From the sequence record NZ_CP118102.1: DNA of 64,000 nucleotides; one strand, given 5' to 3'. This stretch comes from a plasmid. The stretch's first letter is position 1. Each line of letters starts with the position of its first letter. This document shows positions 12,436 to 46,368 of this stretch, one piece after another. The position numbers and the translations under genes are program-made. A model generated the notes under the pieces. The model saw only the letters and a program-made list of their open reading frames with translations, made no database searches and had not been told where the DNA came from.

Positions 12436-12542
12436 AAGTTCAGTTACTGAAGGAAGTTATTTACTTTTATCTGTCACATATAAAGGAGTGGAAAATCAGT
12501 AACCGGTTATTTATAGTAATTTTAAAGGGAGGGTTAAGAGAA

Positions 12543-21405: not shown

Positions 21406-21458
21406 CATCACCGCTATCATTTCGGTAGGTGAGCGAGTAACCCAATTTAGGGAACATA

Positions 21459-21540
21459 AATATGAGGCATGAATTGCCGTGGAGAACAAAGACACGCCAG
21501 AGGTGTGTTTTTTTGTTTCTTCACGGCTTTTTTTGTGCTT
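21459..21540 (+). promoter_or_regulatory. Conserved structured leader element, copy A: outer stem GCCGTG/CACGGC enclosing an intrinsic-terminator-like hairpin plus U7, then TTTTTGTGC
   Basis: Shares 'AATATGAGGC', GTGTGT-T7-G and 'CACGGCT-TTTTTGTGC' with the element at 43847-43930. The outer stem shows compensatory changes between the two copies. Confidence 0.5.
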
Positions 21541-21562
21541 AAAAACTGGGAGGAATTTAGAA

Positions 21563-22729
21563 ATGGCAAAAGCAGTGGAAGAACGTGTTACTACGGCAGT
21601 TAAGGCAGAGGGAGTATCGTTTACCGTTGATCATGAAGCGATTATGAACGTATTAACGACTTGTTCTAAGGTAGTGCCGAGAAGCAGCGTTGTTCCAATA
21701 CTGAAATGTATTAAGTTTGATTTAAACAAAGATGTTCTTTTCGTTACGGCAATGTCCGATTCCCAATCGGTTATTGTGAAACTGCAGGTAGAGAATACAG
21801 GAAATCAGGATGGGAGCTATCTATTTCCTTCAAGAGAAGGAATAGAACTTGTAAAACGTTTGCCAAGCGGTTCGCTATCGTTCAGTGTAAATGAGGCCTC
21901 TGTACGTATCTCGTACGGGAACAATGGTTCTGCATCGCTTAAGGTCTTGGATCCGGACGAGTATCCTCAGCTGCCGTCAGTGGCCGGAGTAAAGTTTGTG
22001 CCGGTTCCAATGGATGCCCTGCGAAAGGGTGCTGCAGCCCAGCGTTTTGCCTCAACTGATTCCAGTACTGCTATTCTCTGCGGTATTAATATCCGCAAAG
22101 TAGAGGATAAGCTTGGATTTACCGCGACGAATAGGCATCGGATATATGATTTCGTTTCTGACGTAAAGATACCAAATCCAGACGAGTTTCGTGGTGGAGT
22201 TATCGATGCTATAAATTTCAAAAGTATCGTAGATACTTTTAGAACCTCTGAAAGAATTGATTTTGCAGTGACGGATCATCATTTAATTTTAAGAGACCGT
22301 AGCAGCAATTCAGTGTACTTTGGTAGGCTAGTTGAGGGAAGTTATCCTGATATTGCGAAACTCTGTGAGATGCCTGAGCAGTCCTGTCTTGCAAGGATTC
22401 CGCTTGGGCGCCTCGACGAGACGTTGAACCGGATGTTATCGCTAGAATCCGAAAATCATCGTGTATATTTTTTACATGGAGATAACGGAGAGCTGGTTGT
22501 TAAATCGGAAAGCCACACAGGTGAGATTGTAGAGTCAATTGAAGGCTCCGTTGTAGATAAAAGTATGGGAATGATCAGGTTCAATGCTCGATATCTGAGG
22601 GATGCCCTTTCAGCCAGTGACCGGGATGTGAACGATGTTTTATTTAACATTACAGGTCAGAGTACTCCATCATATATTACGTATGATGGAGATCCATCGG
22701 TATTGAACGTTGTATTACCCGTGAGGTAA
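21563..22729 (+). CDS. dnaN-like: DnaN-like DNA polymerase III beta sliding-clamp homologue
   Basis: About 390 aa. N-terminal 'VSFTVDHEAIMNVLTTCSKVVPRSSVVPILKCIKFD' and 'LDPDEYPQLP' match the DnaN domain I-II pattern. RBS GGGAGG. Confidence 0.65.
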   Translation: MAKAVEERVTTAVKAEGVSFTVDHEAIMNVLTTCSKVVPRSSVVPILKCIKFDLNKDVLFVTAMSDSQSVIVKLQVENTGNQDGSYLFPSREGIELVKRLPSGSLSFSVNEASVRISYGNNGSASLKVLDPDEYPQLPSVAGVKFVPVPMDALRKGAAAQRFASTDSSTAILCGINIRKVEDKLGFTATNRHRIYDFVSDVKIPNPDEFRGGVIDAINFKSIVDTFRTSERIDFAVTDHHLILRDRSSNSVYFGRLVEGSYPDIAKLCEMPEQSCLARIPLGRLDETLNRMLSLESENHRVYFLHGDNGELVVKSESHTGEIVESIEGSVVDKSMGMIRFNARYLRDALSASDRDVNDVLFNITGQSTPSYITYDGDPSVLNVVLPVR

Positions 22730-22757
22730 TAAATATCAAGATAAAAGAGAGCTGCGC

Positions 22758-23840
22758 ATGCGCGGCTCTTCTAATTTCTATTGGGGGTTAATAAATATGT
22801 CCGATAACATGAAGCGCATGTTTGATCGAATTATTAGAAACAAAATTCGTATGGGTAACTTTGAGACAACTGATCGAGATATGGACTGCGTACGAAAACT
22901 ATTACAATTTCCTGATCGGCCGTTCTCAGCTGCGGATTTTTGTGCAGGAAGTGGCCGTGCAATGGAGATTCTTACACAAGGTTCAAAGGCTGTAACGTTT
23001 GGTGTGGAACCTAATGAAGAGAAGTACCTGGAGCTCCGAGAGCGCGTACACCAAGCATGTTTTGGAGGCTATGAACAGTGCCGTATCTCTAAGGACTACT
23101 TCAGGCTCATATACTTAAATCCTCCCTATGATGATGATTCGGAATCAGAGGAGAGCAAGCGAGAGCGTAAAGAAAAGGTGTTCCTTCGGCACATCATTCA
23201 GTACTTGGCGGTTGACGGAATACTTATCTATAACATTCCGAGGCGACGTATGACTAAGGATATTGTCAATTTGCTAGTCACTAATCTGGATGAGATTAAT
23301 GTTTATCAATCTCATGACGATACATACGGTCAAGTATATGTTTTCGGTCGTAAACGATCTGTAAAGTTCATTGATCGACCGGAAGTACAAAGAATACTTG
23401 GATTAGTTGCTGAAGGAATTGTACTTAGTCGGTTACCTGAAGCAATAGATCCTATTTATAAAGTGCCGGCAGGGAACGTCACTCCAAAATACTTCAGATC
23501 GATAATCATGGACGTAGACCAGCTCAGGGTCGTTTCTTGCCATTCATCTTTGTCACGAAGAGGCATGGAATGGACGACACCTAAAGCACCTGCTTTGAAG
23601 CTGCAGCCGCTCCTTCCGGATAAAGAAATGCATAGGGTCCTAAGAATGGCCTCAGGCCGATTAAACGGAAAAGTTGGCAGCGGAGAACTTCTTCACGTTC
23701 TAAAAGGCATTGTGAAGAAGGATGCTACTACGGAAATTGAAAAAGTCGGGGATGAGACCATAGAGACGACAAGGGAAACCTTTAAGATTACCTTTCGTAT
23801 CGTGGACCGGTTTGGAAATATTCGAACGGTTCAGAGCTAA
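22758..23840 (+). CDS. N6-adenine DNA methyltransferase (motif I FCAGSG before motif IV NPPY), apparently an orphan
   Basis: FxGxG and NPPY motifs read directly. The C-terminal roughly 230 aa could be a target-recognition domain. No restriction-endonuclease partner recognised. Alternative start at 22797. Confidence 0.6.
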   Translation: MRGSSNFYWGLINMSDNMKRMFDRIIRNKIRMGNFETTDRDMDCVRKLLQFPDRPFSAADFCAGSGRAMEILTQGSKAVTFGVEPNEEKYLELRERVHQACFGGYEQCRISKDYFRLIYLNPPYDDDSESEESKRERKEKVFLRHIIQYLAVDGILIYNIPRRRMTKDIVNLLVTNLDEINVYQSHDDTYGQVYVFGRKRSVKFIDRPEVQRILGLVAEGIVLSRLPEAIDPIYKVPAGNVTPKYFRSIIMDVDQLRVVSCHSSLSRRGMEWTTPKAPALKLQPLLPDKEMHRVLRMASGRLNGKVGSGELLHVLKGIVKKDATTEIEKVGDETIETTRETFKITFRIVDRFGNIRTVQS

Positions 23841-23874
23841 CATCTTAGAAAGCAAATGAGGGGGAATAGAGACC

Positions 23875-24516
23875 ATGAAATTTATGGAGTTTACTCATAA
23901 GGACATATATGTGAAGGTTCATTGCTCACTATTAGTGACAAAGTATGATTCAACTACTAAAAATAATTATCTCATTTATACGAATGTTATAGATATTGAT
24001 TCGCGTGTGCAGGCAGTTTTTGCTCAATTTCATCATGCCAAGAAAGCAGAAGATGTAACTTTTCGTTTCTATCATGCACCGCGTATTGGAGAGAAAGGGT
24101 ATGATCGATCCTCTTTTTATATTAAACCCTATGGAAAATACAAGCATCTCTCACAGCGCGAAGATGAGACGCTGGTTACCGGAATTGTTGCCAGTGAAAG
24201 AGTTTTATCGCGCCAGGACCAAGGTTATTGTATTTTTGCATGGGATGGCAATATACACGAAAGACTTTTCTGGGCAATCGATGCTTACTATGAGACGCCA
24301 ATGCTAGAAGAGTGGATCCCTTACTTATATCTTCGGCTATTCCAGGATGGTTATCTCGTTCAACTTGATGTATATGATTACACGGGAGACTATCAAAACC
24401 TGGTTGCTTTTGAGCTGCTCGCTGGAGAGGAAATATTGGATGAGTATATATCTTATGGACTCAGAACAGGGGCAATTCAACTGGTTGAGGATATAAATGG
24501 GGAGGCCGTTTCATGA
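23875..24516 (+). CDS. Hypothetical protein, translationally coupled to the downstream helicase
   Basis: RBS GAGGGGG. Stop overlaps the helicase start (ATGA). Confidence 0.4.
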   Translation: MKFMEFTHKDIYVKVHCSLLVTKYDSTTKNNYLIYTNVIDIDSRVQAVFAQFHHAKKAEDVTFRFYHAPRIGEKGYDRSSFYIKPYGKYKHLSQREDETLVTGIVASERVLSRQDQGYCIFAWDGNIHERLFWAIDAYYETPMLEEWIPYLYLRLFQDGYLVQLDVYDYTGDYQNLVAFELLAGEEILDEYISYGLRTGAIQLVEDINGEAVS

Positions 24517-26777
24517 GTGAATCTTCAGAAATAAGCAATGTGGTGATTGAGGCAATTGACCCTGCTCTGGAAGAGAAAAAGGTTTCCTCTCTTTCCGATG
24601 TGGAATCTATTGGGGATTATTTAGGGTTATTTGGAGCAGACCTGATTAGACGTCTTAACGATGAATATGTACCAGTTCATCATCCAGGTCAAAATAAACC
24701 ACTCCAGTTGTTAGAGAACCTTAAGCGTCCATTATTTCAAGCACAAGCTCACGTCGTAACTGCATTAATTAAGGGGTTTCAGCGTCATCGTAATCTCTTA
24801 GTTATTGGTGAGCCTGGAACAGGGAAAACATCCGTCTCTATCTCAGTTTTTTATTCCCTAATCACAGAATTACTCCAGAAAAAATCTGGACGGGTTCTTT
24901 ATATGGTCCCAAATCATCTGATAAAGAAGACGAAGCGGGAATGGGGTATTCTGCTAGATAAGGATCTGTTTGAGGTTCACTTTCTATCAGACTATATTGA
25001 CGTTATCAAGCTCCGAGATAGCAGAAGATTGGAGACGAAACCTAAAAAAATTGAGGTTTACATCATTGCAAGGGATACTGCTAAACTAGGTTATATTTAC
25101 GAACCGGTTGCACATTGGTCGGACCGTACATATCAGCAGCAGTTTCAAAACAATGATGGGACAGTTCGAACTGTTGAAAAGGTTGCTTTTCGCGGATGGA
25201 GATGCCCCGATTGTGGTGGACAATTAATGAAAGAGAAAGAGGACAGTCTTGTACCGATGGAGTATGAGGACTTTTTTAATAAGCATGGAAAGCCTACGCG
25301 TAGAAAAACGAACTTGTACTGTTCTAATCAAGTACGCCTCTATAAAAATGTAGATCCCGACAAGGACGAGACCCGTATTTGTGGGTCAAGACTTTGGCAG
25401 GCGAAGAATTCGAAAAAATCATATATATCTGGTAAGCCGAAACCGGTTGCTGGGGTGGCGCCACGAAAAGTATCTCCTGCGGATTTGTTTAAGCGTTGGT
25501 TTAAAGGCAAATTTGACCTGGCCATCGGTGACGAATGCCATGAGTTAGCAGGAGGGAGCGCTCAAGCTCATGCTTTTCATGTATTTTTGAATTGTGCCAA
25601 ACGAGGGATCGCAATGACCGGAACTTTGTCCAATGGTTATGCTTCTTCCTTATTCGAATTGTTTTTCCGGATGTTTCCCTCTCGTCTGAAGCAGATGGGC
25701 TTTAATTGGGGAGACGTAGGAAAGTGGGTCGATTTGTACGGTGTACGGGAAAGGGTCACTAAAATACGTGATGACGGAGATTTGAACAGCTCTAGTAACG
25801 GGAAGTCGAAAAGGACAAGTGTTAAGGAGTTGCCGGCTGCCGCACCGCAGCTCTTCACGGACATACTCAGTGACGTTGCAGTTTTTATACAGATGGCTGA
25901 TATGTTCGAAGTCCTGCCGGAACTCAAAGAAGGACCGATGAGTGTTCCTCTTGAGGGTGAAAGAAGACTTATAAGCTGCAAAACCCAAATTGTTCGACGA
26001 CCAGGTAGAAAGAGAAAGATTGAAAAGAAAATGAGGTTACTTGCGCCGGATTGGTATCTCAGAAAAAATCTGACTGAAGTCGAAAATCGTCTGCGAGAAG
26101 CTGTGCAAAAAGAGCTCGCTGCAGGTGGCCAGTCGGTACTTCTAGGGAGCCTTGTGAATACACTTTTGAGTTATTCAGATGTCCCTTTCAATTTCGAAGG
26201 TGTCCTTCATCCGGATACAGGAGAATGCATAGTGTCGGATAGTTACCGGCTTAGTGAGCGCCTATTATATCCTAAGGAGCTTCAGATGATCAAGTTTGTC
26301 CGATCGCAGCTAAAGCTCGGGCGAAGGGTAGGCATTTATGCGACTTATACGGGGAAAATGGGTACTCTGCAGCGACTCTCTCAGTTACTTGAAGAAAGAG
26401 GGATAAAGACAGCCCTACTTGGAACAGAGGTAAAGGGACCAGATCGAGAAGAGTGGATTGCCGAAAGGGTAAGGGAAGGTGCTCAGGTAATACTGACGAA
26501 TCCAATCCTGGTCAGCACTGGCCTTGATTTATTGATGTTTCCTTCACTTTATTTCTATCAGACTGGGCACCGTCTGAATATTGTGCGGCAGGCATCAAGA
26601 CGGCATTGGCGGATAGGTCAGCCGAATAAATGTCTTACTGTTTACAACTCATATCAGGGGACAATGCAGGAGCTGGCCATTAATCTTATGGCAGCCAAAA
26701 TGAGCGCTGCCCAAGCCTTAGAAGGGGTACCGCCAACAAAACGCGGAAAACGTACGCTAAGCCCATTAATTGAGTAA
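24513..26777 (+). CDS. SNF2-family helicase, 3' end interrupted by the transposon (last 17 codons are read from the transposon inverted repeat)
   Basis: GEPGTGKT (motif I), DECHE (motif II), MTGTLSNGYASSLFELF (SNF2 motif III), QASRRHWRIGQ (motif VI). Internal CxxC...C zinc ribbon. The native reading frame continues at 33881. Confidence 0.7.
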   Translation: MSESSEISNVVIEAIDPALEEKKVSSLSDVESIGDYLGLFGADLIRRLNDEYVPVHHPGQNKPLQLLENLKRPLFQAQAHVVTALIKGFQRHRNLLVIGEPGTGKTSVSISVFYSLITELLQKKSGRVLYMVPNHLIKKTKREWGILLDKDLFEVHFLSDYIDVIKLRDSRRLETKPKKIEVYIIARDTAKLGYIYEPVAHWSDRTYQQQFQNNDGTVRTVEKVAFRGWRCPDCGGQLMKEKEDSLVPMEYEDFFNKHGKPTRRKTNLYCSNQVRLYKNVDPDKDETRICGSRLWQAKNSKKSYISGKPKPVAGVAPRKVSPADLFKRWFKGKFDLAIGDECHELAGGSAQAHAFHVFLNCAKRGIAMTGTLSNGYASSLFELFFRMFPSRLKQMGFNWGDVGKWVDLYGVRERVTKIRDDGDLNSSSNGKSKRTSVKELPAAAPQLFTDILSDVAVFIQMADMFEVLPELKEGPMSVPLEGERRLISCKTQIVRRPGRKRKIEKKMRLLAPDWYLRKNLTEVENRLREAVQKELAAGGQSVLLGSLVNTLLSYSDVPFNFEGVLHPDTGECIVSDSYRLSERLLYPKELQMIKFVRSQLKLGRRVGIYATYTGKMGTLQRLSQLLEERGIKTALLGTEVKGPDREEWIAERVREGAQVILTNPILVSTGLDLLMFPSLYFYQTGHRLNIVRQASRRHWRIGQPNKCLTVYNSYQGTMQELAINLMAAKMSAAQALEGVPPTKRGKRTLSPLIE
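26724..26761. repeat. Tn3-family terminal inverted repeat, left copy (GGGGTACCGCCAACAAAACGCGGAAAACGTACGCTAAG)
   Basis: Perfect 38-bp reverse complement of 33838-33875. Flanked by TAGAA. Confidence 0.9.
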
Positions 26778-26839
26778 TAAGCCGGTTTTCCCCGTACGCT
26801 AAAGGGGTACCGGCTCCGAAATTCGCAACGTGTTAATTG

Positions 26840-29797
26840 TCAGTAGAGAGGTTTCTTTAATGGCCGTAACGACGTTAGAGTTGTTGCTTGTTTTAGATCA
26901 AACTTGTACTCCCCTAGAAAATTAATATGTTCCCATCCTAGAGGTGAGGTATGTTGCATTAGTTCTTCTTTAAACGTTCCTTGGGTCTTTTTATATTCTG
27001 TTGCATGAGACAAATAGACAGTATTCCATACGCTGATTGCATTAATCAAAATGTTCAAGGCGCTGGCTCGTTGGAGTTGATCTTGCAGTGCGCGCTCCCG
27101 TAACTCCCCGTGTTTACCGAAGAAAATCGCTCTGGCCAGTGCGTTCATAGCCTCACCTTTATTCAGCCCCCTATGAATCTTCCGGCGCAGGGCTTCGCTT
27201 GATATGTAATCCAGAATAAAGATTGTCTTTTCAATGCGCCCCATTTCACGTAGAGCGGTTGCTAAGCGATTCTGCCGCGAGTAGGAACCGATCTTCCCCA
27301 TGATAAGTGATGCAGATACTGTCCCTTCTCGAATAGAATGGGCTAGCCGCAGCACATCATCATAATTTTCCTGAATGACCTTCGTATTGATTTGACCACG
27401 CAGCAGTTTCTCCAGTTTTGGGAAATCAGTAGGCTTCCCGATGATGTAAAGCTTAGAATCAGAAAGATCTCGTAAGCGCGGCGCAAATCTGAATCCGAGT
27501 AGTTGAGTCAAACCAAAAACTTGATCTGTATATCCTGCAGTGTCCGTATAATGTTCTTCGATGGTCAAGTCAGTTTCATGATGAAGTAGTCCATCGATCA
27601 CATGAACAGCATCCCTAGCATTCGTGTTAATCACTTTAGAATAGAAGCTTGAAAATTGATCACTGACAAAACGATAAATGGTTGCGCCCTTGCCAGTTCC
27701 GTAGTGCGGATTAGCATCCGCATGAAGCGCAGCTACGCCAATCGGCACCCTCATTCCGTCTGACGAAGACGTGGTGCCATCGCCCCAATAGGAGGGCAAA
27801 GATAACTTGTGGTGGAAGTTGACGAGGACAGCTTGAGCTTTATTCATTGCATCCTCATATAGCCGCCATTGTGCCGTATTGGCCATTTGCCGGTATGAAA
27901 TATCCGGCGTGGCATCCCCCATCTTGGTCAATCCAATGTTCGTTCCCATCGCCATCAGTGTTGCCATGAGAATTAACGTTTCTTCTTCATTGGGAATCCG
28001 ATTTGTTGAAGCATGGATAAATTGTTCATGAAAACCAGTCCAATGCGCTACCTCCATTAAGACCTCAGTCAATTTAATACGTGGAAGTAGTTCGTACAAG
28101 GATGAGCTAAAATTTCTGGCATCCTCCGGAGTATCTTTCTCTAGGCGGCTAATGTGAAGTTTTCCTTGCTCAAAGTTAATACCTTCTAGATCCTCAATGT
28201 TATTCGAAACCCATTCTAAGCGCTGTATCAGAGATGCGGTACGTTCGGCTAGGTAATCGCTCGCAGTCATGCTAACTACCAATTTTGTTTCATCAGGCTG
28301 AATACGGCTCCATTCATCTTTGGAGACAAGATACTCATCAAAATCTTTATGCTGCCGGCTCCCGACAATGGACACATCACCGGAGCGAACATAATTACGC
28401 AGCTCAGTTATTACAGCCATTTCGTAATAATGACGGTTAATCGTTCCGTCATCATCGTAGACATGCTTTTGCCAACGATTTGTTACAAAATTTAAGGGTG
28501 CGTCTTTTGGTACTTTACGTTTACCAGTTTCATTAATGTCCCTTATAACATCAATAGCCTTCATAAGTGGCTCTGCGGATTTATTAGAACGGAATTCCAA
28601 CGTTTTCAGCAGTGTTGGTGTATATTTGCGCAGCGTGTAAAACTTCTTCTCCAGCAAATCCAAATAGTCGTAATCAATGGGACGGGCCAGTCGCTTTGCT
28701 TCCTCTACAGATGCGACGAGCTGATCCCAGGGCATTACCGTCTCCAACGCAATAAATGGGTCTATGCCTTCGTCCCTAGCTTTTATGAGTGCTGCGCCAA
28801 GATCAGCATAATGAACCACCTTTTCGTTAATCGATTTTCCATTTTGTTTTTGGATTTCTTCTTGAGCCTTACGGCCTTTGGAATGTAGCTGTAATATCTG
28901 ACGGTCGTGAATTTCAAATGCTTGATCCGTTAAATCTTGTGTTAGATCGAGTAAATAAGCAACTAAAGTAGCATATTTCTTGGGGTCATCGAAACGACGG
29001 AAGGACTGCGGTTCATACCTTGCCCCGATTTTGGAGAGCTGACGTAATCGGTTTGGATGAATTCCCTTTGTATCGATTTGAAGCTGGACTTTTCGTATAT
29101 ATTCAAGTTTTTCAATGATCTTAAGGAAAGCATCCGGGGAACAGGTGCCTGGTACTTCTCTTAGCCATGCCAGATACGTTTTGTTGCTCTCCGGCATTGG
29201 GGATAGGATGTTTTCAAGTTTATCGACCTGCTCCACTGATAAGGAAGAAATAAGCATTTTATATATTTTCTCCTCGGCCCGTTGCCTCACTTCCCACACA
29301 ACCCGTTCGATTGTAGTCATCCCAGGTATAATGATTTTCTGTTTTCGTAATTCATCAAGGGCTACACGGATTAAATACATGGAGTTACCATTTTCTAACG
29401 AAAAATTCAGCATGATATTGGATAAGAACCGATATTCACGAAGCGTGAAGTTCCGATACCCATAGGTTTGCCGAATCTCCTCCATATGTTCTCGTCTAGT
29501 CGGTTCCCGTTGGGCATAAAGGGGAAATACATCAGGTGCCACGCCAACCTGCTTGGCAATGTAGCTTATTACAGAATCCGGTATGTGTTTCAAATCAGAT
29601 AAAGACCATCCTGGATAACGCAGGATGGCCAATTGAACGGCAAAGCCTAATCGGTTATGATCACGGCGATGTTTATTGATGATATCGAGATCGTGTTGCG
29701 AAAATGTATAGTACGTACCTAAATCCCAATCGTCGTCTGAAGGGATTTGCATAAATTCTGCGCGCTGATCTAATGTTAATAATTCCTTTCCTCTCAA
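26840..29797 (-). CDS. tnpA: Tn3-family DDE transposase
   Basis: 985 aa. N-terminal 'DWDLGTYYTFSQHDLDIINKHRRDHNRLGFAVQLAILRYPGW' is typical of Tn3-family TnpA. Confidence 0.9.
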   Translation of the reverse strand: MRGKELLTLDQRAEFMQIPSDDDWDLGTYYTFSQHDLDIINKHRRDHNRLGFAVQLAILRYPGWSLSDLKHIPDSVISYIAKQVGVAPDVFPLYAQREPTRREHMEEIRQTYGYRNFTLREYRFLSNIMLNFSLENGNSMYLIRVALDELRKQKIIIPGMTTIERVVWEVRQRAEEKIYKMLISSLSVEQVDKLENILSPMPESNKTYLAWLREVPGTCSPDAFLKIIEKLEYIRKVQLQIDTKGIHPNRLRQLSKIGARYEPQSFRRFDDPKKYATLVAYLLDLTQDLTDQAFEIHDRQILQLHSKGRKAQEEIQKQNGKSINEKVVHYADLGAALIKARDEGIDPFIALETVMPWDQLVASVEEAKRLARPIDYDYLDLLEKKFYTLRKYTPTLLKTLEFRSNKSAEPLMKAIDVIRDINETGKRKVPKDAPLNFVTNRWQKHVYDDDGTINRHYYEMAVITELRNYVRSGDVSIVGSRQHKDFDEYLVSKDEWSRIQPDETKLVVSMTASDYLAERTASLIQRLEWVSNNIEDLEGINFEQGKLHISRLEKDTPEDARNFSSSLYELLPRIKLTEVLMEVAHWTGFHEQFIHASTNRIPNEEETLILMATLMAMGTNIGLTKMGDATPDISYRQMANTAQWRLYEDAMNKAQAVLVNFHHKLSLPSYWGDGTTSSSDGMRVPIGVAALHADANPHYGTGKGATIYRFVSDQFSSFYSKVINTNARDAVHVIDGLLHHETDLTIEEHYTDTAGYTDQVFGLTQLLGFRFAPRLRDLSDSKLYIIGKPTDFPKLEKLLRGQINTKVIQENYDDVLRLAHSIREGTVSASLIMGKIGSYSRQNRLATALREMGRIEKTIFILDYISSEALRRKIHRGLNKGEAMNALARAIFFGKHGELRERALQDQLQRASALNILINAISVWNTVYLSHATEYKKTQGTFKEELMQHTSPLGWEHINFLGEYKFDLKQATTLTSLRPLKKPLY

Positions 29798-29846
29798 TGG
29801 TTACACACCTTTCACTAAAATCAGAAGTTCAGTCAATAGGAGATGT

Positions 29847-30428
29847 TCAGGTCACCTGAAGGCTTTGTGTAGTCTTATTCCGGTTTGTAAGTGTTTGATA
29901 GATTTTTGCTTTAGATACACCGGTTCGTTCTGTTATTTCCTTAATGGTGTACTTTTCACTATCGTAAAGTGTAAGAGCCATGTCAATTTTGTTTTTATCC
30001 ATTGGAGGACGACCGCCTTTCCTGCCTCTCGCACGTGCAGCCTGTAATCCAGCAATGGTTCGCTCTCGGATTGTCTCTGCTTCCATCTCCGCCAGTCCAG
30101 CCATGATAGCAAAGAAAAGTTTCCCAGCGGGCGTACTCGTATCAACACCAAGAGTAATGATCTGCAGTCCAATCCCTATTTCCTGAAGGCCATGCGATAA
30201 TTCGATTAGTTGCCGCGTGGTTCTTCCCAAACGATCCAGCTTCCAAATGACAAGCGTATCACCTGGTCTCAAATATTCTAGGCAACGGGTCAGCTCCACT
30301 CGATCACTTTTCTTCCCAGAAGCCTTCTCCTCAAATATTCGCTCGCAGCCAGCAGCTTTTAACGTGTCGATCTGTAGGTTCAGTGATTGATCAGCTGTCG
30401 AGACACGAGCATAACCAATTTTGGCCAC
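29847..30428 (-). CDS. tnpR: Serine recombinase (resolvase) with a C-terminal HTH
   Basis: 'GYARVSTADQ' catalytic-serine motif. About 190 aa. Confidence 0.9.
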   Translation of the reverse strand: MAKIGYARVSTADQSLNLQIDTLKAAGCERIFEEKASGKKSDRVELTRCLEYLRPGDTLVIWKLDRLGRTTRQLIELSHGLQEIGIGLQIITLGVDTSTPAGKLFFAIMAGLAEMEAETIRERTIAGLQAARARGRKGGRPPMDKNKIDMALTLYDSEKYTIKEITERTGVSKAKIYQTLTNRNKTTQSLQVT

Positions 30429-30690
30429 ATGAATATCTCCTTTTGTCTATTAAACATATATTTATGATAATTTATACACTTTGAATTTTATACGACTTAA
30501 TAGACAATAACAATGCTATTTCTTACTGTATTTTAAGCTATGCACAAAAAGTATACAAAACGATCGTTTTTTAGACCCGACAATAGATACAACAAGCTGA
30601 TATATAATAAAACGCAGGACGCGGCGGTGAAGTAGCTTTTGTGATTCAACTAGATGGTAGCATATTCAACTTCTTGAAGGGAAATAATGT
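30429..30690. promoter_or_regulatory. Probable res (resolution) site and tnpR promoter region
   Basis: AT-rich region between tnpR and merR containing tgtctatta/taatagaca inverted motifs. Position is standard for Tn3-family elements. Confidence 0.4.
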
Positions 30691-30693
30691 TCC

Positions 30694-30725
30694 TTGACCA
30701 TGTACCATGGTACATGGTCTATACT
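30694..30725 (+). promoter_or_regulatory. mer promoter with MerR operator: TTGACC, 20-bp spacer containing the ATGTACCATGGTACAT dyad, TATACT
   Basis: Perfect 16-bp palindrome between -35 and -10 elements with over-long spacing. This is the hallmark of MerR-type promoters. Confidence 0.65.
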
Positions 30726-30744
30726 TTATTTAGAGGTGATGAAA

Positions 30745-31170
30745 ATGAATTATCGCTCCGGAGATATTTCTAAATTGTGTAACGTTAACAAAGAAACATT
30801 AAGATATTACGAACGAAAAGGTCTGATTCATGAACCAGTAAGATCGGATGCTGGCTACAGGCTTTATCCGGAAGAAACGATAAACCGAATCATGTTCATT
30901 AAACGCATACAGGAGCTTGGTTTTACATTGTCTGAAATTGATAAATTGCTTGGTGTTGTTGATAAAGACGATGTGAGATGTGCGGGTATGAATGATTTCG
31001 TTGTTCAAAAGCTGGAAGATGTTCAGTCGAAAATTAGAGACTTTCAACGAATCGAAACGATGCTAAAAGATTTAAAAGACCGCTGTCCAGATGAAAAAGC
31101 GATACACGAATGCCCAATCATCGAAGCGCTCATTGACAATAATCAAAAGGAAAAGGAGGAAGTCCAATGA
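30745..31170 (+). CDS. merR: MerR-family Hg(II)-responsive regulator
   Basis: N-terminal HTH (ISKLCNVNKETLRYYERKGLI). C-terminal Cys residues. RBS AGAGGTGA. The longer ORF from 30694 covers the promoter and is rejected. Confidence 0.8.
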   Translation: MNYRSGDISKLCNVNKETLRYYERKGLIHEPVRSDAGYRLYPEETINRIMFIKRIQELGFTLSEIDKLLGVVDKDDVRCAGMNDFVVQKLEDVQSKIRDFQRIETMLKDLKDRCPDEKAIHECPIIEALIDNNQKEKEEVQ

Positions 31171-31418
31171 AAGAAAATGCAAAAAAAATAGGTTGGGGCT
31201 TTTTAGCTCTGCTTTCCTGTCCTTGCCATCTTGTTTTGATTCTCCCTTTACTTGCGGGAACTACATTTGGAGCGTATTTTGCTCTCCATCAAACAGCCGT
31301 CAGTGTTATTTTAGGAATCGTATTTGTAATTTCTCTTGTCATGATGTTTAAACGAGCCAGCAAACAAGCAAAAACCGATGAATCACACGATTGCTGCTCA
31401 GTTCCGGAGCGAAAATGA
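31167..31418 (+). CDS. merE: MerE-like mercury transport membrane protein
   Basis: 'LLSCPCHLVLILPLLAGTTFGAY' matches the MerE 'LTCPCHLPILAAVLAGTTAGAF' region. RBS AAAGGAGGA. Confidence 0.7.
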   Translation: MKENAKKIGWGFLALLSCPCHLVLILPLLAGTTFGAYFALHQTAVSVILGIVFVISLVMMFKRASKQAKTDESHDCCSVPERK

Positions 31419-31423
31419 GGTGA

Positions 31424-31735
31424 ATGATTTTGAGAGAAAAAATGACTAGCTTGGCAACGATATTTTCAGCGTTTCTTATGTCCGGCTGTTGCCTCGGGCC
31501 CTTAATTCTCATTCCGTTTGGGTTATCAGGTTTTGCAGGAACGCTTGCAATTTTTTCAATCAAGTACCAACTGTTTCTTATGGTCATGACGATATTATTT
31601 CTTGGTGTATCGTTTTATTTGGTTTATGGACGAAAATGCAAAAAGAAAAGTACGGTCATCACATTATGGATATCGACCGTTTTGGTTTTAGGAGCATTTT
31701 TATATTTATGGTTGGCTGAAAGTGGACTGTTATAA
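31424..31735 (+). CDS. merT: MerT mercuric ion transport protein (Gram-positive type)
   Basis: Three TM segments. Vicinal 'GCC' in TM1. Start codon uncertain (ATG 31424 or TTG 31430). Confidence 0.6.
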   Translation: MILREKMTSLATIFSAFLMSGCCLGPLILIPFGLSGFAGTLAIFSIKYQLFLMVMTILFLGVSFYLVYGRKCKKKSTVITLWISTVLVLGAFLYLWLAESGLL

Positions 31736-31751
31736 GAAAGAGGTGTGTTAC

Positions 31752-32081
31752 GTGAGAGCAACAATGGGAATTATGATGTTATTAACTCTTTTATTATTGG
31801 GTACTGCTTGTGGTAACAATGAAAATACGGTGGAAGCTGCAGCCGCGCAAAGTACACCCGTTGCAAATGGATCAGCGACGTTCACGGTGACGGGACTTGA
31901 TTGCTGCCCGCCTTCAGTGATTCAAGATTTAATTTCAAAGGTCGATGGGGTTAGCAAAGTAGACATAGAACCCATGGGAAGCAAAGGGAAAGTTACGGTT
32001 TCCTTTGATGATAAAAAAACTGATTTAAAGCAGATTCAAACATCGGTTACAAAATATGGATTTGGCGTAATAGGAGGATAA
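31752..32081 (+). CDS. merP: MerP-like Hg-binding lipoprotein (heavy-metal-associated fold, atypical 'GLDCC' site)
   Basis: Lipoprotein-like N-terminus (LLGTAC). A metal-binding domain between merT and merA. GTG start with SD AAGAGGTG. Confidence 0.5.
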   Translation: MRATMGIMMLLTLLLLGTACGNNENTVEAAAAQSTPVANGSATFTVTGLDCCPPSVIQDLISKVDGVSKVDIEPMGSKGKVTVSFDDKKTDLKQIQTSVTKYGFGVIGG

Positions 32082-32084
32082 AAA

Positions 32085-33725
32085 ATGAAAAAGTACCGTG
32101 TACATGTGCAAGGCATGACTTGCACCGGCTGTGAAGAGCACGTTGCAACGGCACTTGAAAGCATTGGAGCTGCGAATATTGAGGCGAGCTTTCGCCGCAA
32201 TGAAGCCACGTTTGAATTACCGGATGACGTTGCGATCGAAACAGCCCAAAAAGCCATCAACGAGGCAAAATATCAATCCGGAGATGTGGAAGTTATCGAA
32301 TCCCATGATGCTCCGGTTCTCGGCGATGAGGGCGACTATGATTTTCTTATCATCGGTTCCGGTGGGGCAGCGTTTTCCGCCGCGATTCAAGCGGTCGAAC
32401 ATGGTGCAAAAGTGGCGATCATCGAGCAAGGAACGGTAGGCGGAACCTGCGTAAATGTGGGCTGCGTGCCATCGAAAACCCTGCTGCGTGCCGGTGAAAT
32501 CAATCACTTAGCCAATAATAACCCTTTCTTGGGGCTAACTACATCTGCAGGAACGGTGGATTTGGCTGAGCTAGTGAAACAAAAAAATGAACTTGTAACC
32601 GAAATGCGTGAACAAAAGTATGAACATTTGATTGGTGAGTACGGATTTGAACTCATTCGCGGAGAGGCAAAATTCGTTGATGAAAAAACCATCGAGGTCG
32701 GTGGACGAAAGCTTACCGCTAAACGATTTTTAATCGCGACAGGAGCTTCACCATCGATTCCGGATATTCCAGGATTAAAAGACGCTAACTATTTAACAAG
32801 TACGTCACTGCTTAACCTTAAAGAATTGCCAAAAAGACTTGCTGTGATTGGCTCAGGTTATATTGCACTGGAATTAGGTCAGTTGTTTCATAATTTAGGA
32901 TCAGAAGTTACGCTGTTGCAAAGAAGTCCTCGGTTGTTAAAAGAGTATGACCCTGAAATTTCCGAATCTGTGACAAAAGCAGTCACCGAACAAGGGATAA
33001 ATCTGATTACCCGTGTCACGTATGAGCGCGTTGAAACTAATGGGGATTTGAAACAAATTCATATTGCAGTAAACGGCGAAAAGAAAGTCATCGAAGCCGA
33101 GCAGTTGCTTATTGCAACCGGCAGAAAACCGAATACCGAAGCACTGAATCTTCGTGCAGCGAACGTCATTATTGGTACCAAATGCGAAATCGTGGTCGAT
33201 GATTTTTTAAAAACCTCAAATCCTAGGATTTACGCCGCAGGCGATGTGACGATGGGTCCGCAGTTTGTGTACGTGGCTGCCTATGAAGGACGCATCGCGG
33301 CGGATAATGCAGTTGGTGGGTTAGAAAAAAAAGTAAACCTTGAAACTGTTCCGGGGGTCACGTTCACTTCACCTGCGGTGGCGACGGTAGGACTTACGGA
33401 AGAACAAGCCAGGGCAAAAGGATATGATGTGAAGACTTCTGTACTTCCTTTGGATTCGGTGCCTAGAGCACTTGTAAATCGCGAAACAACAGGCGTTTTT
33501 AAATTAGTTGCTGACTCCAAGTCGTTAAAGGTGCTCGGTGTTCATATTGTCGCAGAAAATGCAGGAGACGTGATTTACGCCGCAACACTTGCTGTAAAAT
33601 TCGGTTTAACGGTCGAGGATCTACGCGACAGCCTTGCTCCTTATTTAACGATGGCAGAAGGATTAAAACTGGCAGCGATTACGTTTAATAAAGATGTATC
33701 CAAATTATCCTGTTGCGCTGGGTAA
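32085..33725 (+). CDS. merA: Mercuric reductase
   Basis: N-terminal HMA domain ([11 protein letters not shown]). '[13 protein letters not shown]' redox disulfide. C-terminal 'CCAG'. 546 aa. Confidence 0.9.
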
Positions 33726-33837
33726 GATATATTATCTGTGGTAATTAACATGGTTGAGGAGAACGATTTCAATAAACTACAGGCTGCCCAGGCAGCCTGT
33801 TTTTGCGCATATATGGCTGTTTCTCTTATAAGTATAC

Positions 33838-33875
33838 CTTAGCGTACGTTTTCCGCGTTTTGTTGGCGGTACCCC
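33838..33875. repeat. Tn3-family terminal inverted repeat, right copy
   Basis: Exact reverse complement of 26724-26761. Followed by TAGAA. Confidence 0.9.
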
Positions 33876-34495
33876 TAGAAGGTCAGTTTTCCCAGGAAGG
33901 CTTATCAGCTCTTACTGAAGGTTCTGGAGGGAGCCTTGCTACGGAATTGGCGAAACGCTTTGTTGGTAATAATATCGAAGGTGTGGAAAGTGCTGAGTCC
34001 ATTTGGGGCAAGATGACTATATATGCGACTCAGTTTATTCCGGAATCTTCGGTACAAGCTTTGGTACAGGAAGATACTATTAACGACAATTCCAGTGATT
34101 TTGTTGAGGTGGAAGTTCCTTCAGTAGATGTTATTGAAGCGGGATCCCTGCAAGAAGTACTCCTTAAATGGGCAGATGAGTCTATACCAGCTGATCTTCA
34201 TTCACGATTTGAGCAACAAATAAAATATGTTGTGGAGCGAGTAAAGCAAGGTGTAGAGGGCTTAGAGTTCTCCTGCAGTGCTGAGTCTACGGTTCTAAGC
34301 TGGGATTGTTCAAAAGCACCAAGAGATGCGATTGATTTTCGTCGATGGGTTTTCAACTTGACGAATAAGATTGTTCATGAGCAGTCTACATCGAAACAGG
34401 AGAAAATTAGACTTGTGGTCGAAGGTAATAAACCAGCTGCCAAAACGAAGAAGAAATACAACGTGGGAGCTGGCCAGATAGCTTTCAAATTTTGA
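33876..34495 (+). pseudogene. Orphaned 3' fragment (about 204 codons) of the SNF2 helicase gene, severed by the transposon insertion
   Basis: Removing the transposon and one TAGAA copy joins ...AQALE to GQFSQEGLSAL... in frame, giving a 941-aa ORF that ends at 34495. Confidence 0.8.
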
Positions 34496-34668
34496 AACTC
34501 GAATCAGTGATCTGAAAATGAGTTTGATAATACAGAAAATCGTTATAAAAAAAAGGTGCCGGCTTGCCGGCATCTTTTTCTGTTTTTATTTATGAAAAAA
34601 TTTTGTGAAAATCAACTTCCGTTATATGATAAATACAAAATATACGGAAAAAGGGAGATTTTTATCTA

Positions 34669-35012
34669 TGGGAACACAGAAAATTAATCCAACATGCAGA
34701 ATTTGTGAGAAGCTCAATGATGAAATGACGCATTGTGCTGTCTTTGGGGCAATAACACCAGAAAACACTAATAATACAGCGCTAGGGGCGGCTTGTGCTA
34801 AATTAGGTGATTATGTGAGATTGTTACATGCACGTCCTAATGAGTACAATTATGGCTATAGACAAGTAGATAGTGTTGTTGCTGAGAGAGAAGATGAGGA
34901 GCTTTTAGTATTTGACGCAGCTGATGAGGCAGAGGGTTTTCAAATTCAGAATGGCATTACATTAGAGGAATGGGCAAGAATGACCTTCGGCAATGGAAAT
35001 AATCAGGTCTAG
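34669..35012 (+). CDS. Hypothetical small zinc-ribbon protein
   Basis: 'CRICEK...HCAVFG' motif. RBS AAGGGAG. Confidence 0.35.
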
Positions 35013-35036
35013 AAATAAGATAGAGGGGGATCCAGG

Positions 35037-36827
35037 GTGGCTAAGCTATCAAATCAGAAAAAGGAACGTCAGACGGTAAATGCAATTGAATATCTGGCAA
35101 ATTTACCAGACTCCTATTTGATACCTGATATACCAGTGGGAGATAAGGGGATTTCGTTTGATGGGCATATCTCGGTAATGGAAGATGATTCAGAGACTAA
35201 AGAATCCCTAATTGGAAGAGTACCGGTACAAGTAAAGGGGACTGAAGTAGAGCATTTTACTGAAGGAGTTAGGAGTTTCAGCTTCGAGTTAGCTGATTAT
35301 CGAAATTTTTTTAATTCCGATGGTGTTTTATTACTTGTTGGTGAGGTCAAACCTAACGGAGAAACTAAGCTTTTTTACAAAGCTTTGCTTGCTCTCGAGA
35401 TAAATGAATTACTACAACGTTTTAACAAACAGAAACAGAGGGTTATAGAATTACGACCACTGGATGAAACAAGATTGTATGATGTTTGTTATAAATTTTT
35501 GGCAGAACAAACACTGCAGTCAAGAGAACTAGTGACGCATAAGCCATTTCAAATTGATGACTTTAGAGAGTTAAGGTTGACCAGTATGACATACTCTCCT
35601 TCACTTGATGAATCACTGGAGAAAATTTTTGACCATGACTTTACGATGTATGGTGTTAAAAATCAAGCTCATTTTCCCTTAAAGAGAATAAGAATTGGGT
35701 CAATCAATGTTCGAAAAGATAACGTCATTTTTAGTGATATGAAGAATGAATATAGAATTCTTACTGACATAGAAGTAAAACAGAATGTTACAGCCTACAC
35801 CTTGGAAAAATCATTTATCTTAGAGATAAGCAATAATGATGGTGTATTCAAACTTAATTATGAAATTTTGGACTTTAATACACTTGCTGCTCAACTAAAA
35901 GTTGTTCCTATGTTAATAAGTTTATTTTCAGGTAATAAAATAAGTTTCCGAGGTAATTATATTCAGCTCGATTCTCAAAAAGAAACTTTAGAAGGGTTTC
36001 GAGAGCGATATGAATGTTTGCTCGAGTTGGAGAGAACTTTTGAGCTTCTTGGCATCGACAAAACAACACTTATTGAACAAGAATGTGATGATCAACTAGG
36101 TGAAGAATTAGAGTGGTTAATTCTTAGAGTACTAAAGAATGATGTTAGAGGATTTTCGTTTGGTGAAACAAAGAGAGGAATATTCAACTTTAAAGTCGGA
36201 AAGCACTTAGTATTGTTGTTCTATAATTCCACCGCAAAGCAAAGAATAGTAAGTGTTTTTTCTGATGAGGTTGCTGCTTCTGAATTATACATGGTTGACG
36301 AGGGTGATGGCGAGGAATATCGTCACAGTATTTATATTTCTCTTTCTGAAGAGTCTTTAGCTAAGGGAATCAACATAAATAGTCAAGCAATCTGTAATTC
36401 TTTTGATCAAATTGATCCATTTTCGAGTAATACAGTTTCTGATTTTACTAACAACTTCTGTTTAAAATGTATTAACGCATTTATTAAGTCTGGTAAGAGA
36501 GAACTCTTAGATATAGCTGAGAATATCTATGCAAAATCTAATGGACAGGCAAATGTAAATAATGAATATATTTTGATAAATAAACTACAGATTAAATTAT
36601 GGAGAGATGGGAGTCTAACTGATGAAGAGAATCAGTTACTATATCAAAAAAAAATGCAGGCTATAAAAGAAGAAAACGCAGAGCTATCATTTTGTGTCAG
36701 CGTACTGCTCAAAAATTTAGACGAGAGTCGATTTTTCTTTAACTTGATGGACAAAGAACTACAAGACTTCTATATGATGCTACCAATCTATAAATTGTAT
36801 GAGTCTGTGAATCCTGTAACTGAATGA
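35037..36827 (+). CDS. Large hypothetical protein with a possible N-terminal PD-(D/E)xK-like (DUF4365-like) nuclease fold
   Basis: 'FDGHISV...RVPVQVKG' resembles a D...(E/Q)xK motif. Roughly 430 aa of uncharacterised C-terminal region. GTG start with SD GAGGGGGA. Confidence 0.35.
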   Translation: MAKLSNQKKERQTVNAIEYLANLPDSYLIPDIPVGDKGISFDGHISVMEDDSETKESLIGRVPVQVKGTEVEHFTEGVRSFSFELADYRNFFNSDGVLLLVGEVKPNGETKLFYKALLALEINELLQRFNKQKQRVIELRPLDETRLYDVCYKFLAEQTLQSRELVTHKPFQIDDFRELRLTSMTYSPSLDESLEKIFDHDFTMYGVKNQAHFPLKRIRIGSINVRKDNVIFSDMKNEYRILTDIEVKQNVTAYTLEKSFILEISNNDGVFKLNYEILDFNTLAAQLKVVPMLISLFSGNKISFRGNYIQLDSQKETLEGFRERYECLLELERTFELLGIDKTTLIEQECDDQLGEELEWLILRVLKNDVRGFSFGETKRGIFNFKVGKHLVLLFYNSTAKQRIVSVFSDEVAASELYMVDEGDGEEYRHSIYISLSEESLAKGININSQAICNSFDQIDPFSSNTVSDFTNNFCLKCINAFIKSGKRELLDIAENIYAKSNGQANVNNEYILINKLQIKLWRDGSLTDEENQLLYQKKMQAIKEENAELSFCVSVLLKNLDESRFFFNLMDKELQDFYMMLPIYKLYESVNPVTE

Positions 36828-43507: not shown

Positions 43508-43846
43508 AGGCTTGGAAGAAATGTTTTTGAGCATTACGTTATATACAGTAGTAGCGAACATCAAATAAAGCAAAGTCGGTAAGTAGATAAAGAAGGGGGA
43601 ATTTTGGAAACAATCTCGAAGGATTACTTAAGGTCAGCATAAATAAGGTTCAGCCGTTTGGGGAAGGGTGAGACACACCTTTCTCCATCCTTAAAACTAA
43701 CTGCTCATTTATAAGGCGTATAGTTTACACCGTAGAGCTTCACTCAGGTTGAATCATATGCTATACTTACTTCATTATTAGTACTTAATGTTTTTCTTTG
43801 CCGCTATAGTTCGGTAAAGATAGGGGAAACGGTATTATACCGTCAA

Positions 43847-43930
43847 AATATGAGGCTACCTATTAGCCGTTGGAAACAGGAGACAACCTTTGGTGTGTCT
43901 TTTTTTGTTTTCAACGGCTATTTTTGTGCC
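43847..43930 (+). promoter_or_regulatory. Conserved structured leader element, copy B: outer stem AGCCGTTG/CAACGGCT enclosing a hairpin plus U7, then TTTTTGTGC
   Basis: Homologous to the element at 21459-21540 with compensatory outer-stem changes. Sits immediately upstream of the ORF at 43950. Confidence 0.5.
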
Positions 43931-43949
43931 TAATTGAGGAGGAATAAAA

Positions 43950-44291
43950 ATGCGTATTAACATGAACACTCTTAAGCAAATCCTGCCCTGTCTACCAGAT
44001 GGACAAACCACCTCAAAAACACTATCAGTTGGAATCTTCCGTGCTATTGAGGCTGCCCATGAATTGGTTGATAGCAGTGAAGTTGACTGGAATTCGTTTA
44101 CGCTTGCGGAAGCTGAAGAAGCTTTAGATCATGCTATGGCGTACGAGTGCGATGAACACATCGAGCATGGGGATTATGCCAACATCAACAGTGGTAATGC
44201 AATTCACGAATACCTGCATAGTCATAATCTCATATTTCAGTTGAAGCGGTCTGCTCCTGAAAAACAGACAGCCGCAATTCAATTCTTTTGA
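43950..44291 (+). CDS. Hypothetical protein
   Basis: ORF with RBS GAGGAGG, downstream of leader copy B. Confidence 0.4.
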   Translation: MRINMNTLKQILPCLPDGQTTSKTLSVGIFRAIEAAHELVDSSEVDWNSFTLAEAEEALDHAMAYECDEHIEHGDYANINSGNAIHEYLHSHNLIFQLKRSAPEKQTAAIQFF

Positions 44292-44307: not shown

Positions 44308-44589
44308 ATGGAGAAGTCCTACTACTGTTCAGAACAGGTTGGACAAATGCAGGCTACCTACGACTCTTTAGTCATGCTGAAGATGATCGAGGTTGCTGGA
44401 TGTGATATCGTGAACAACCCAGTCAATTACTACTGTTATGATTGGGGGGATCAATATCCCGTATTTGTTACATGCATTAAAAGAGTATTTGGAGGTTGGT
44501 GGCGCAGCTGGTGGAGTTTAACGTGCTGTTGGCGGTGCTTGCGTTGTCGTTCGTTGAAGAGTTGTCAGCATTGGAGGTATTGGTGGTAG
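44308..44589 (+). CDS. Hypothetical small protein; 3' end overlaps the convergent repeat-protein gene
   Basis: RBS GAGGAG. The C-terminal 35 aa read antisense to the neighbouring gene, so the true stop is uncertain. Confidence 0.3.
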   Translation: MEKSYYCSEQVGQMQATYDSLVMLKMIEVAGCDIVNNPVNYYCYDWGDQYPVFVTCIKRVFGGWWRSWWSLTCCWRCLRCRSLKSCQHWRYWW

Positions 44590-45799: not shown

Positions 45800-46051
45800 T
45801 ACTTCTATCCTCTCCTTTGATGGGGGTAGTTGACTACCCTTTAGTATATTTGCCTGCTATTAACTCGGAAACGGCGAATCTACCTATAAATTTTTGTCCA
45901 TCTATCAAATACACAGAAAATGGGCAAAAAAAGACCTTGTCTCGCTCTCGGCAAGACAAGGTAAGGTCCATGACAAAGGAGGTGTAGCTACCCTATGTTT
46001 GATATATGCAGGAGGACGGGTTTTCGCTCCCCTTGCCCTGGACAGTCAACC

Positions 46052-46351: not shown

Positions 46352-46368
46352 CGCAAAGAATCCCGTTT

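Follow-up and report, generated by a model that had tools for sequence, protein, structure and literature searches.

The stretch of DNA analysed here (the window) comprises 64,000 nt of a Paenibacillus megaplasmid, sequence record NZ_CP118102.1. Its central part carries a run of co-oriented genes for a DNA polymerase III sliding clamp (DnaN), a DUF6094 methyltransferase, a 213-amino-acid (aa) protein and a superfamily 2 (SF2) helicase with a zinc ribbon. The run is preceded by a structured leader, interrupted by a mercury-resistance transposon and followed by genes for a 114-aa zinc-ribbon protein and a 596-aa nuclease-like protein (Table 1). An original prediction, made from the sequence alone, had taken six of these genes as one uncharacterized and insertionally inactivated module. 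The region is instead a composite of a conserved backbone unit, a separate nuclease cassette and a very recent Tn3-family mer transposon. The conserved unit is made up of the leader, dnaN, the DUF6094 gene, the 213-aa gene, the zinc-ribbon SF2 helicase and, more loosely, the 114-aa gene, and it forms part of the backbone of large Bacillales plasmids. The helicase family ends in a conserved tail of the type by which proteins bind the sliding clamp, and this tail offers a plausible connection between the helicase and the clamp.

Table 1. Features of the window, in order of position (nt, numbered from the first letter of the window)
Feature	Position	Strand	Remarks
LPD1 (large polyvalent-protein-associated domain 1) protein gene	17–1720		same plasmid region, upstream of the unit
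Polymorphic-toxin HINT-domain protein, 1,722 aa	2160–7328		same plasmid region, upstream of the unit
Seven direct iterons (ACTCCT...TGTGACAG)	11597–12441		upstream of rep
rep gene	12429–13778		
Conserved structured leader	21425–21545	+	just upstream of dnaN
dnaN, DNA polymerase III beta sliding clamp, 388 aa	21563–22729	+	three Pfam DNA_pol3_beta domains
DUF6094 S-adenosylmethionine-dependent methyltransferase, 347 aa	22797–23840	+	Pfam PF19587, E 1.4e-29
213-aa protein	23875–24516	+	ATGA overlap with helicase start at 24513
Helicase, 5′ part, codons 1 to ~736	24513–26723	+	all ATPase motifs and four-Cys zinc ribbon
TAGAA 5-bp target duplication	26719–26723 and 33876–33880		
Tn3-family mercury-resistance transposon, 7,152 bp	26724–33875		inside helicase gene
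tnpA	26840–29797	−	Pfam DDE_Tnp_Tn3
tnpR	29847–30428	−	Pfam Resolvase
merR	30694–31170		Pfam MerR
merT-like	31424–31735		Pfam MerT
HMA/merP-like	31722–32081		Pfam HMA
merA, 546 aa	32085–33725		Pfam Pyr_redox_2
Helicase, 3′ part, last 205 codons	33876–34495	+	collinear with L001 25320–25939; ends in clamp-binding-type tail
Zinc-ribbon protein, 114 aa	34668–35012	+	
Standalone DUF4365-type PD-(D/E)xK nuclease, 596 aa	35037–36827	+	beta-rich middle, TPR-like C-terminal domain
Second leader copy	43846–43933		precedes 113-aa open reading frame 43950–44291

The six proteins of the window were mapped onto 23 genome loci and onto plasmid contexts with annotation. At each of the 13 Paenibacillaceae loci the DUF6094, 213-aa and helicase genes stand side by side in one orientation, with dnaN upstream of them and in the same orientation in 12; all four genes, dnaN included, point the same way in P. 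urinalis, P. provencensis, P. sp. Cedars, Thermobacillus, P. sonchi, P. polymyxa, Cohnella and others. The genes recur in rearranged order on ~200–260-kb Bacillus/Paenibacillus plasmids and likewise in mobile elements of Campylobacterota. Helicase and DUF6094 lie within 10 kb of each other in six of the eight Campylobacterota loci and also in Veillonellaceae, Muribaculaceae and Clostridium loci. Additionally, dnaN is co-oriented with the helicase on 3/3 Bacillus-type plasmids and at three Campylobacterota loci; at the latter, tblastn with the Paenibacillus DnaN missed the genes and a custom hidden Markov model together with Pfam recovered them. By tblastn the 114-aa gene is located downstream of the helicase in 11 of the 13 Paenibacillaceae loci, at a distance of 0.2–3 kb, and GAF-domain or other genes sometimes intervene.

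The unit is embedded throughout in replication and recombination clusters (primase, RecT, Rep, iterons). The order in Sulfuricurvum is RecT, primase, dnaN, a 241-aa gene, helicase and DUF6094; a Cas4-like exonuclease, RecT and a DnaG-type primase form the context in Helicobacter pullorum, and a helicase and primase that on Bacillus plasmids. The idea of a conserved, uncharacterized module was therefore sound for the clamp, methyltransferase, 213-aa and helicase genes: the 213-aa gene travels with the methyltransferase and the helicase, and the zinc-ribbon gene, present after the transposon as described, follows at variable distance. The 596-aa gene does not travel with them. Identity with a known replication or conjugation operon had been named as an outcome that would speak against a new module; the unit does sit inside replication and recombination clusters, but it corresponds to no known replication operon.

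The leader, an element of about 90 nt, folds into a long hairpin of three tiers; its inner stem is terminator-like, and it has two U-runs. Its two copies in the window share 77 % identity and have RNA fold z-scores of −6.2 and −5.6. The leader is kept upstream of dnaN in 11 loci (besides the window, L005, L006, L007, L008, L016–L019, L021 and L022), in which the DnaN proteins are merely ~30–75 % identical, and compensatory changes are seen at six of its base pairs. No matching family was found in Rfam. The copies, folds, loci and compensatory changes together bear out the conserved leader that had been proposed to precede the module. It could be an attenuator or an antitermination target that co-regulates two operons.

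The methyltransferase carries the motifs that had been noted at the outset, motif I as DFCAGSG and motif IV as (L)NPPY, and Pfam adds the DUF6094 assignment. NPPY is invariant in the relatives from Paenibacillaceae, Campylobacterota and Bacteroidota/Clostridium. Over its full length the protein aligns to the N-terminus of DUF6094–helicase fusions of 1,540–1,650 aa (residues 4–386 in one of them), and DUF6094 is N-terminal in distant helicase homologues of 1,233–1,646 aa (P0055–P0064, fused). The 213-aa domain is in other lineages the N-terminal domain of the helicase. A profile of the 213-aa protein yielded 65 representatives, 27 of which are 726–1141 aa long with the domain at the N-terminus; six of these long proteins were scanned and all are SNF2/ResIII helicases. 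Such fusions are found in P. sonchi, on plasmids of Bacillus licheniformis and B. thuringiensis, on a second P. urinalis plasmid and at a Veillonellaceae locus.

These fusions bear on whether there is a functional unit at all. The genes might be mere backbone neighbours, co-inherited by descent, and the synteny does come mostly from related Paenibacillaceae plasmids that share backbone genes. Fusion in unrelated lineages largely refutes this explanation, linkage is kept across phyla in rearranged order, the ATGA overlap provides the translational coupling of 213-aa gene and helicase that had been predicted, and the helicase tail motif fits the product of a neighbouring gene, the clamp. Mere neighbourhood is thus highly improbable.

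Across 14 homologues the helicase retains Q78, the Walker A motif GxGK105, DExH340–343 and the QxxxRxxR of motif VI (Q693/R697/R700). Four further invariant residues, C231, C234, C270 and C290, lie between motifs I and II. An SNF2 helicase with a CxxC zinc ribbon had been anticipated; the four cysteines support the ribbon, but Pfam finds only ResIII/DEAD in the window helicase, and SNF2-related matches (SNF2-rel_dom) appear in distant homologues. The match among PHROGs is phrog_62, ‘DNA helicase’. Searches of the PDB by sequence with the helicase and with the methyltransferase gave no match.

The helicase of the window ends in QIAFKF (tail ...KKKYNVGAGQIAFKF, followed by the stop codon). Paenibacillaceae helicases have GQ[IFY]AFNF at the extreme C-terminus, and one P. 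urinalis plasmid (L011) has a helicase terminating in QGAFAFF. On the Bacillus-type plasmids L009 and L010 the tails are QELDLF and QALDLF, two residues before the end; those of Campylobacterota are QLSLF, QLSLPLF or QLAFAF, and that of a Parcubacteria locus is QLTFF. The motif is kept at 26 of 32 orthologous helicase loci and is present in 1 of ~450 other open reading frames (ORFs). When the 476 ORFs of 150 aa or more from all loci were scanned, a permissive C-terminal pattern matched 26, and 25 of these are helicase orthologues. Among the distant helicases with the 213-aa-type N-terminal domain, a strict motif was matched by 9/27 as against 0/87 control proteins; by eye, ~19 of the 27 have a QL-x-(L/F/W)-x-(L/F) tail in their last 20 residues.

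The consensus published for clamp binding is QL[S/D]LF or QxxLF, with QLSLPL as a tightly binding form (PMC12309361). The helicase family has motifs of the QL[S/D]LF/QxxLF or QLxLxL form at an exposed terminus, so its conserved tail fits a beta-clamp-binding-type motif, from which binding to the clamp is predicted. Like established clients of the beta clamp (PolC, Pol IV, Hda, MutS/MutL, the delta subunit), the helicases have a short terminal motif that begins with Q and has hydrophobic or aromatic residues at positions 4–6, likewise preceded by a flexible basic linker, and some orthologues have the exact canonical QLSLF or QLSLPL. The QxAFNF of Paenibacillaceae is atypical and coincides with a divergent, plasmid-borne DnaN; the plasmid DnaN scores 129 bits against TIGR00663, below the cut-off of 137.65, and is thus a divergent protein. 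A sliding clamp at the head of such a module had been considered unusual. This did not hold, since dnaN is found with the helicase repeatedly, in Paenibacillaceae, on Bacillus-type plasmids and in Campylobacterota, and the tail type would explain why a clamp gene is there. The clamp appears to be a recurrent partner of the helicase, with the tail as a plausible physical link.

A 470-aa protein without a Pfam match (L030 19325–20737) also ends in QISLF. Its gene is on the Sulfuricurvum element that encodes clamp, helicase and methyltransferase, and the protein is a candidate for a second clamp client.

Positions 1399–44494 of the window are collinear with 190–206-kb plasmids of Paenibacillus urinalis 2022CK-00829. 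The sole large difference is one 7.15-kb insertion, the aligned flanks of which are 99.98–100 % identical. The inserted element is bounded by perfect 38-bp inverted repeats, GGGGTACCGCCAACAAAACGCGGAAAACGTACGCTAAG, and has the ~38-bp repeats, 5-bp duplication, DDE transposase and resolvase of the Tn3 family. With class II mercury-resistance transposons of this family it shares repeats starting with GGGG, a serine resolvase and a merR–merT–merP–merA cargo; merB was not detected in it. A groEL identity of the 546-aa cargo gene was rejected, as Pfam shows merA. The transposon has no close relative in PLSDB, in which the best match (74 % identity) is to a Bacillus pseudomycoides transposase only. 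Perfect repeats, target duplication and the uninterrupted P. urinalis alleles leave the predicted transposon in the helicase gene well established.

The cut falls at about codon 736 of 941, past all ATPase motifs, and so only the C-terminal 205 aa, clamp-binding tail included, are lost; the 5′ ORF continues into the transposon repeat and stops at 26777. The helicase is therefore interrupted as proposed, with the tail and not the ATPase core removed. An intact allele (L001 23114–25939) has zero differences from the two fragments in the window, which indicates that the insertion is recent. The intact and the transposon-disrupted plasmids form a natural pair for comparison.

Other interruptions and truncations are found in homologues of the unit. 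L019 (6923–10001 and 4303–4387) and L021 (7440–10001) contain group II introns, which match Rfam RF02004 and RF00029 and come with an ORF for a 607-aa reverse transcriptase. In P. melissococcoides and P. ihuae group II introns occupy the same helicase site, codon 345, just past DExH, and in L019 (P. melissococcoides) the DUF6094 gene has the 3′ end of a further intron at its start. The helicase homologue P0053 contains a LAGLIDADG intein, and 9 of the 47 clusters of close homologues consist of a helicase fragment the size of exon 2. In P. sp. Cedars (L005 10547–13392) the helicase is split into two ORFs, a frameshifted allele. An 875-aa variant (P0001) is 100 % identical to the window helicase and ends early, without the clamp-binding tail; it was seen in run assemblies and may be an assembly error. 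Recurrent disruption of the helicase was considered as evidence of inactivation and rejected, because the introns and the intein splice and do not inactivate.

From the observed gene content, synteny, fusions, motif conservation, folds and insertion anatomy we infer clamp binding by the helicase, DNA (not RNA or protein) as the target of methylation, and a protective role. The reading that we prefer, at about an even chance of being right, is that the methyltransferase–helicase unit serves self-protection or establishment of the element by acting on its nascent DNA, and is not a host defence. Sliding clamps mark newly synthesized DNA. Clamps remaining on freshly made element DNA would recruit the helicase via its C-terminal tail, either during vegetative replication or during complementary-strand synthesis upon entry into a new host. 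The helicase would then move along the duplex together with the methyltransferase, bound directly or via the 213-aa domain, and the nascent DNA would be methylated or cleared ahead of host restriction or other DNA-targeting immunity. A clamp-bound translocase with a methyltransferase suggests action on the newly made DNA of the element, and self-protection is favoured for that reason.

Pairs of this kind have a precedent. Phages, plasmids and conjugative transposons widely carry a ‘DNA methylase–helicase dyad’, fused or as neighbours; P1 DarB is its archetype and counter-restriction its predicted role (Iyer et al. 2017, PMC5512222). The unit resembles the dyad in that a motif I-to-IV adenine-type methyltransferase is paired with an SF2, SWI2/SNF2-like helicase, adjacent here and fused in P0055–P0064, and in its carriage by mobile elements (plasmids, contigs labelled phage, RecT/primase modules). 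The DarB-type dyad has an N-terminal LPD36 domain, and an LPD-domain gene (LPD1) is found near the unit. Additionally, the helicase profile is collinear with DarB residues 799–1545 (hhalign E 5.5e-5, 560 columns). The unit differs in its three-gene split with an extra 213-aa domain and in the four-Cys zinc ribbon inserted into the helicase and the clamp-binding-type tail at its C-terminus. It also differs in having an element-encoded DnaN alongside and no evident virion or transfer-protein context.

Several observations weigh against the protective reading and the precedent to which it appeals. The hhalign probability for the alignment to DarB is just 66 %, and tblastn searches that started from the helicase, from the methyltransferase and from a fused homologue found no P1 (DarB) match; with only an alignment of helicase cores at that probability, direct homology to DarB was rejected. 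DarB matches PF02384 and PF07669 (N6_Mtase/Eco57I), whereas the window protein matches PF19587 only and is not an EcoKI/TaqI-like methyltransferase. Given the different family and the lack of a BLAST link, the unit is read as a split, clamp-tethered variant of the methylase–helicase dyad and not as a member of the DarB family. The NPPY motif is degenerate on Bacillus-type plasmids (VNPQ, VDPY), in L024 and in the fused P0055 (NSDY), so that methylation is not the whole story everywhere. NPPY is found also in protein-glutamine and rRNA methyltransferases. The fused DUF6094–helicase proteins do not have the C-terminal motif, dnaN is absent within 10 kb of the helicase in 5/8 Campylobacterota loci, and the predicted clamp binding is deduced from a short motif. 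Finally, the plasmids are typed as non-mobilizable, which weakens the scenario of conjugative entry.

A wider form of the self-protection reading is offered tentatively, as possible though doubtful. The elements of at least two phyla would operate a machine with a ‘private clamp’, in which the element's DnaN on nascent DNA recruits a zinc-ribbon SF2 translocase with DUF6094, all under the control of the leader of the operon. By analogy this would be a bacterial counterpart of PCNA–DNMT1. The tail would have co-evolved with the clamp in use, as QxAFNF with the plasmid clamp and as QLSLF where the host clamp is used, and element DNA would be kept marked or protected as in maintenance methylation.

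The location of the unit raises the main alternative, that of a replication or repair accessory: a clamp-associated fork remodeller or replisome translocase, with DUF6094 in a structural or regulatory part, comparable to eukaryotic PCNA-bound SNF2 remodellers. The unit is always found among primase, RecT, exonuclease, DnaN, Rep or Pol IV genes. The tail is more widely kept than the catalytic motif of the methyltransferase, and Bacillus-type plasmids keep the tail while NPPY is degenerate. Introns and an intein have entered the unit, and such elements usually occupy important replication-type genes. Catalysis is favoured, however, by NPPY and motif I, neither of which varies in most lineages. 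Here the plasmid persists without the C-terminus of the helicase; together with the frameshifted allele of P. sp. Cedars and the truncated P0001 this indicates that the helicase is dispensable for maintenance. The fusion of methyltransferase and helicase is moreover a hallmark of conflict-type dyads (PMC5512222). On these grounds an accessory of this kind is rather unlikely.

The tail and the recurrent element clamp provide a concrete and testable handle on the mechanism of methyltransferase–helicase pairs on phages, plasmids and integrative and conjugative elements, DarB included. The clamp link predicts both a site of action, newly replicated DNA, and a route there. If it is true, the helicase–methyltransferase complex would join the short list of bacterial clamp clients, and the presence of a dnaN of their own on megaplasmids and phage-like elements would be explained. 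In the literature searched, an SF2 helicase with a methyltransferase partner is not described as a clamp client, nothing relevant was found on plasmid-borne or defence-system methyltransferases or helicases linked to a clamp, and DUF6094 is mentioned in a single paper.

The 596-aa protein behind the unit had been likened to PD-(D/E)xK/DUF4365 nucleases for a D...QxK arrangement at its N-terminus, and structure prediction with a fold search was suggested as a check. The family has invariant E10, D36, D42, Q65 and K67 (D42...Q65-x-K67), and the AlphaFold2 model (predicted local distance difference test score 89) has the PD-(D/E)xK nuclease fold, so the likeness was real. The C-terminus resembles the TPR-like sensor domains of ASK1, NprR, Rap and MalT. 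The top Foldseek match is chain A of XauSPARDA, the DREN-APAZ subunit, with a probability of 0.99 and a low global TM-score of 0.20–0.27; a PDB search by sequence gave no match. With the SPARDA effector (DREN/DUF4365-APAZ, which acts with a short prokaryotic Argonaute) the protein shares the N-terminal DUF4365 PD-(D/E)xK domain and the D...QxK residues, but it has a TPR-like domain at the C-terminus instead, and no Argonaute gene is annotated around the 596-aa gene in L001–L004.

The gene is located behind the unit only in P. urinalis and P. provencensis. The P. provencensis copy (L015 13368–15155) is 76 % identical to that of the window against 99–100 % for its neighbours, which suggests that the cassette was exchanged for another allele or diversified rapidly. 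Homologues elsewhere stand alone, in unrelated contexts: in Brevibacillus adjoining conjugation genes, in Lysinibacillus next to a ligase, and in Priestia beside DndB-like genes and an AAA ATPase/UvrD-helicase pair that is read as Gabija-like. Outside P. urinalis, none of 20 plasmids with the 596-aa gene is among the 15 plasmids with the 213-aa gene. These contexts and the lack of co-occurrence make the 596-aa gene a separate cassette, and a single six-gene module can no longer be upheld. The protein is probably a stand-alone conflict gene product, a putative nuclease with a TPR-like sensor domain.

With the nuclease included, the genes could be taken as a host defence: methyltransferase, helicase and DUF4365 nuclease, with or without the zinc-ribbon protein, as a restriction–modification-like or MADS/DISARM-like system whose cost selected for inactivation. 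The set does resemble modification-dependent systems, the nuclease fold is real and closest to the SPARDA effector, and the Priestia homologue has DndB-like and Gabija-like neighbours. PADLOC weakly matched the methyltransferase to MADS mad2 (E 3.6e-6) and the N-terminus of the helicase to mad8 (E 1.2e-4), with otherwise marginal type IIG and PDC-M27C matches. The likeness to MADS is confined to generic fold-level regions, and the other six MADS genes are absent. In PADLOC-DB v2 there was no match for DnaN or for the 213-aa, 114-aa or 596-aa proteins, and the 114-aa protein had none in Pfam, PHROG or NCBIfam either. No PADLOC system model was matched, and PADLOC, NCBIfam and PHROGs assigned no system to the unit; a known defence system (BREX, DISARM, Dnd, MADS, type I/III restriction–modification) was accordingly rejected, in agreement with the original prediction that the set belongs to no named system.

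Against a host defence stands also that the nuclease is linked to methyltransferase and helicase only in the P. urinalis/provencensis lineage, and that scans with Pfam, PADLOC, NCBIfam and PHROG found no nuclease or effector domain in the conserved unit. The unit is located in replication modules, not in defence islands; a clamp-binding tail and an element clamp are foreign to known restriction–modification-like systems; and a single recent insertion is no evidence of selection. Host defence is thus improbable. Of the two settings first proposed for the genes, a defence island or an anti-restriction block, the second, on a mobile element, is the better fit.

The replication functions of the plasmid are located in the same region of the window as the unit. 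The iteron sequence is ACTCCTnnnTTTGTGACAG, with an inverted copy at 12466–12494, and iterons and rep are probably the plasmid origin. A DnaA-N-domain protein, a toprim protein, Pol IV with YolD and a DinG-like helicase are encoded in the window as well. Upstream of dnaN, within positions 1399–21562, a single 1-nt indel separates the window from the P. urinalis plasmid L001 (25,327-nt alignment vs 25,326 nt).

Collinearity with the P. urinalis plasmid stops at 44494. The next 1.8 kb (44495–46320) lie mostly inside an ORF with 132-nt tandem repeats. They are 100 % identical to sequences that occur more than once in Paenibacillus sp. Cedars plasmids, and 99.3 % identical to Brevibacillus borstelensis plasmid sequences. 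From ~46.3 kb the G+C content rises from ~40 % to 55–64 % and no plasmid match was found (46300–64000); the DNA of the window beyond this point is foreign, or the junction to a segment of different origin.

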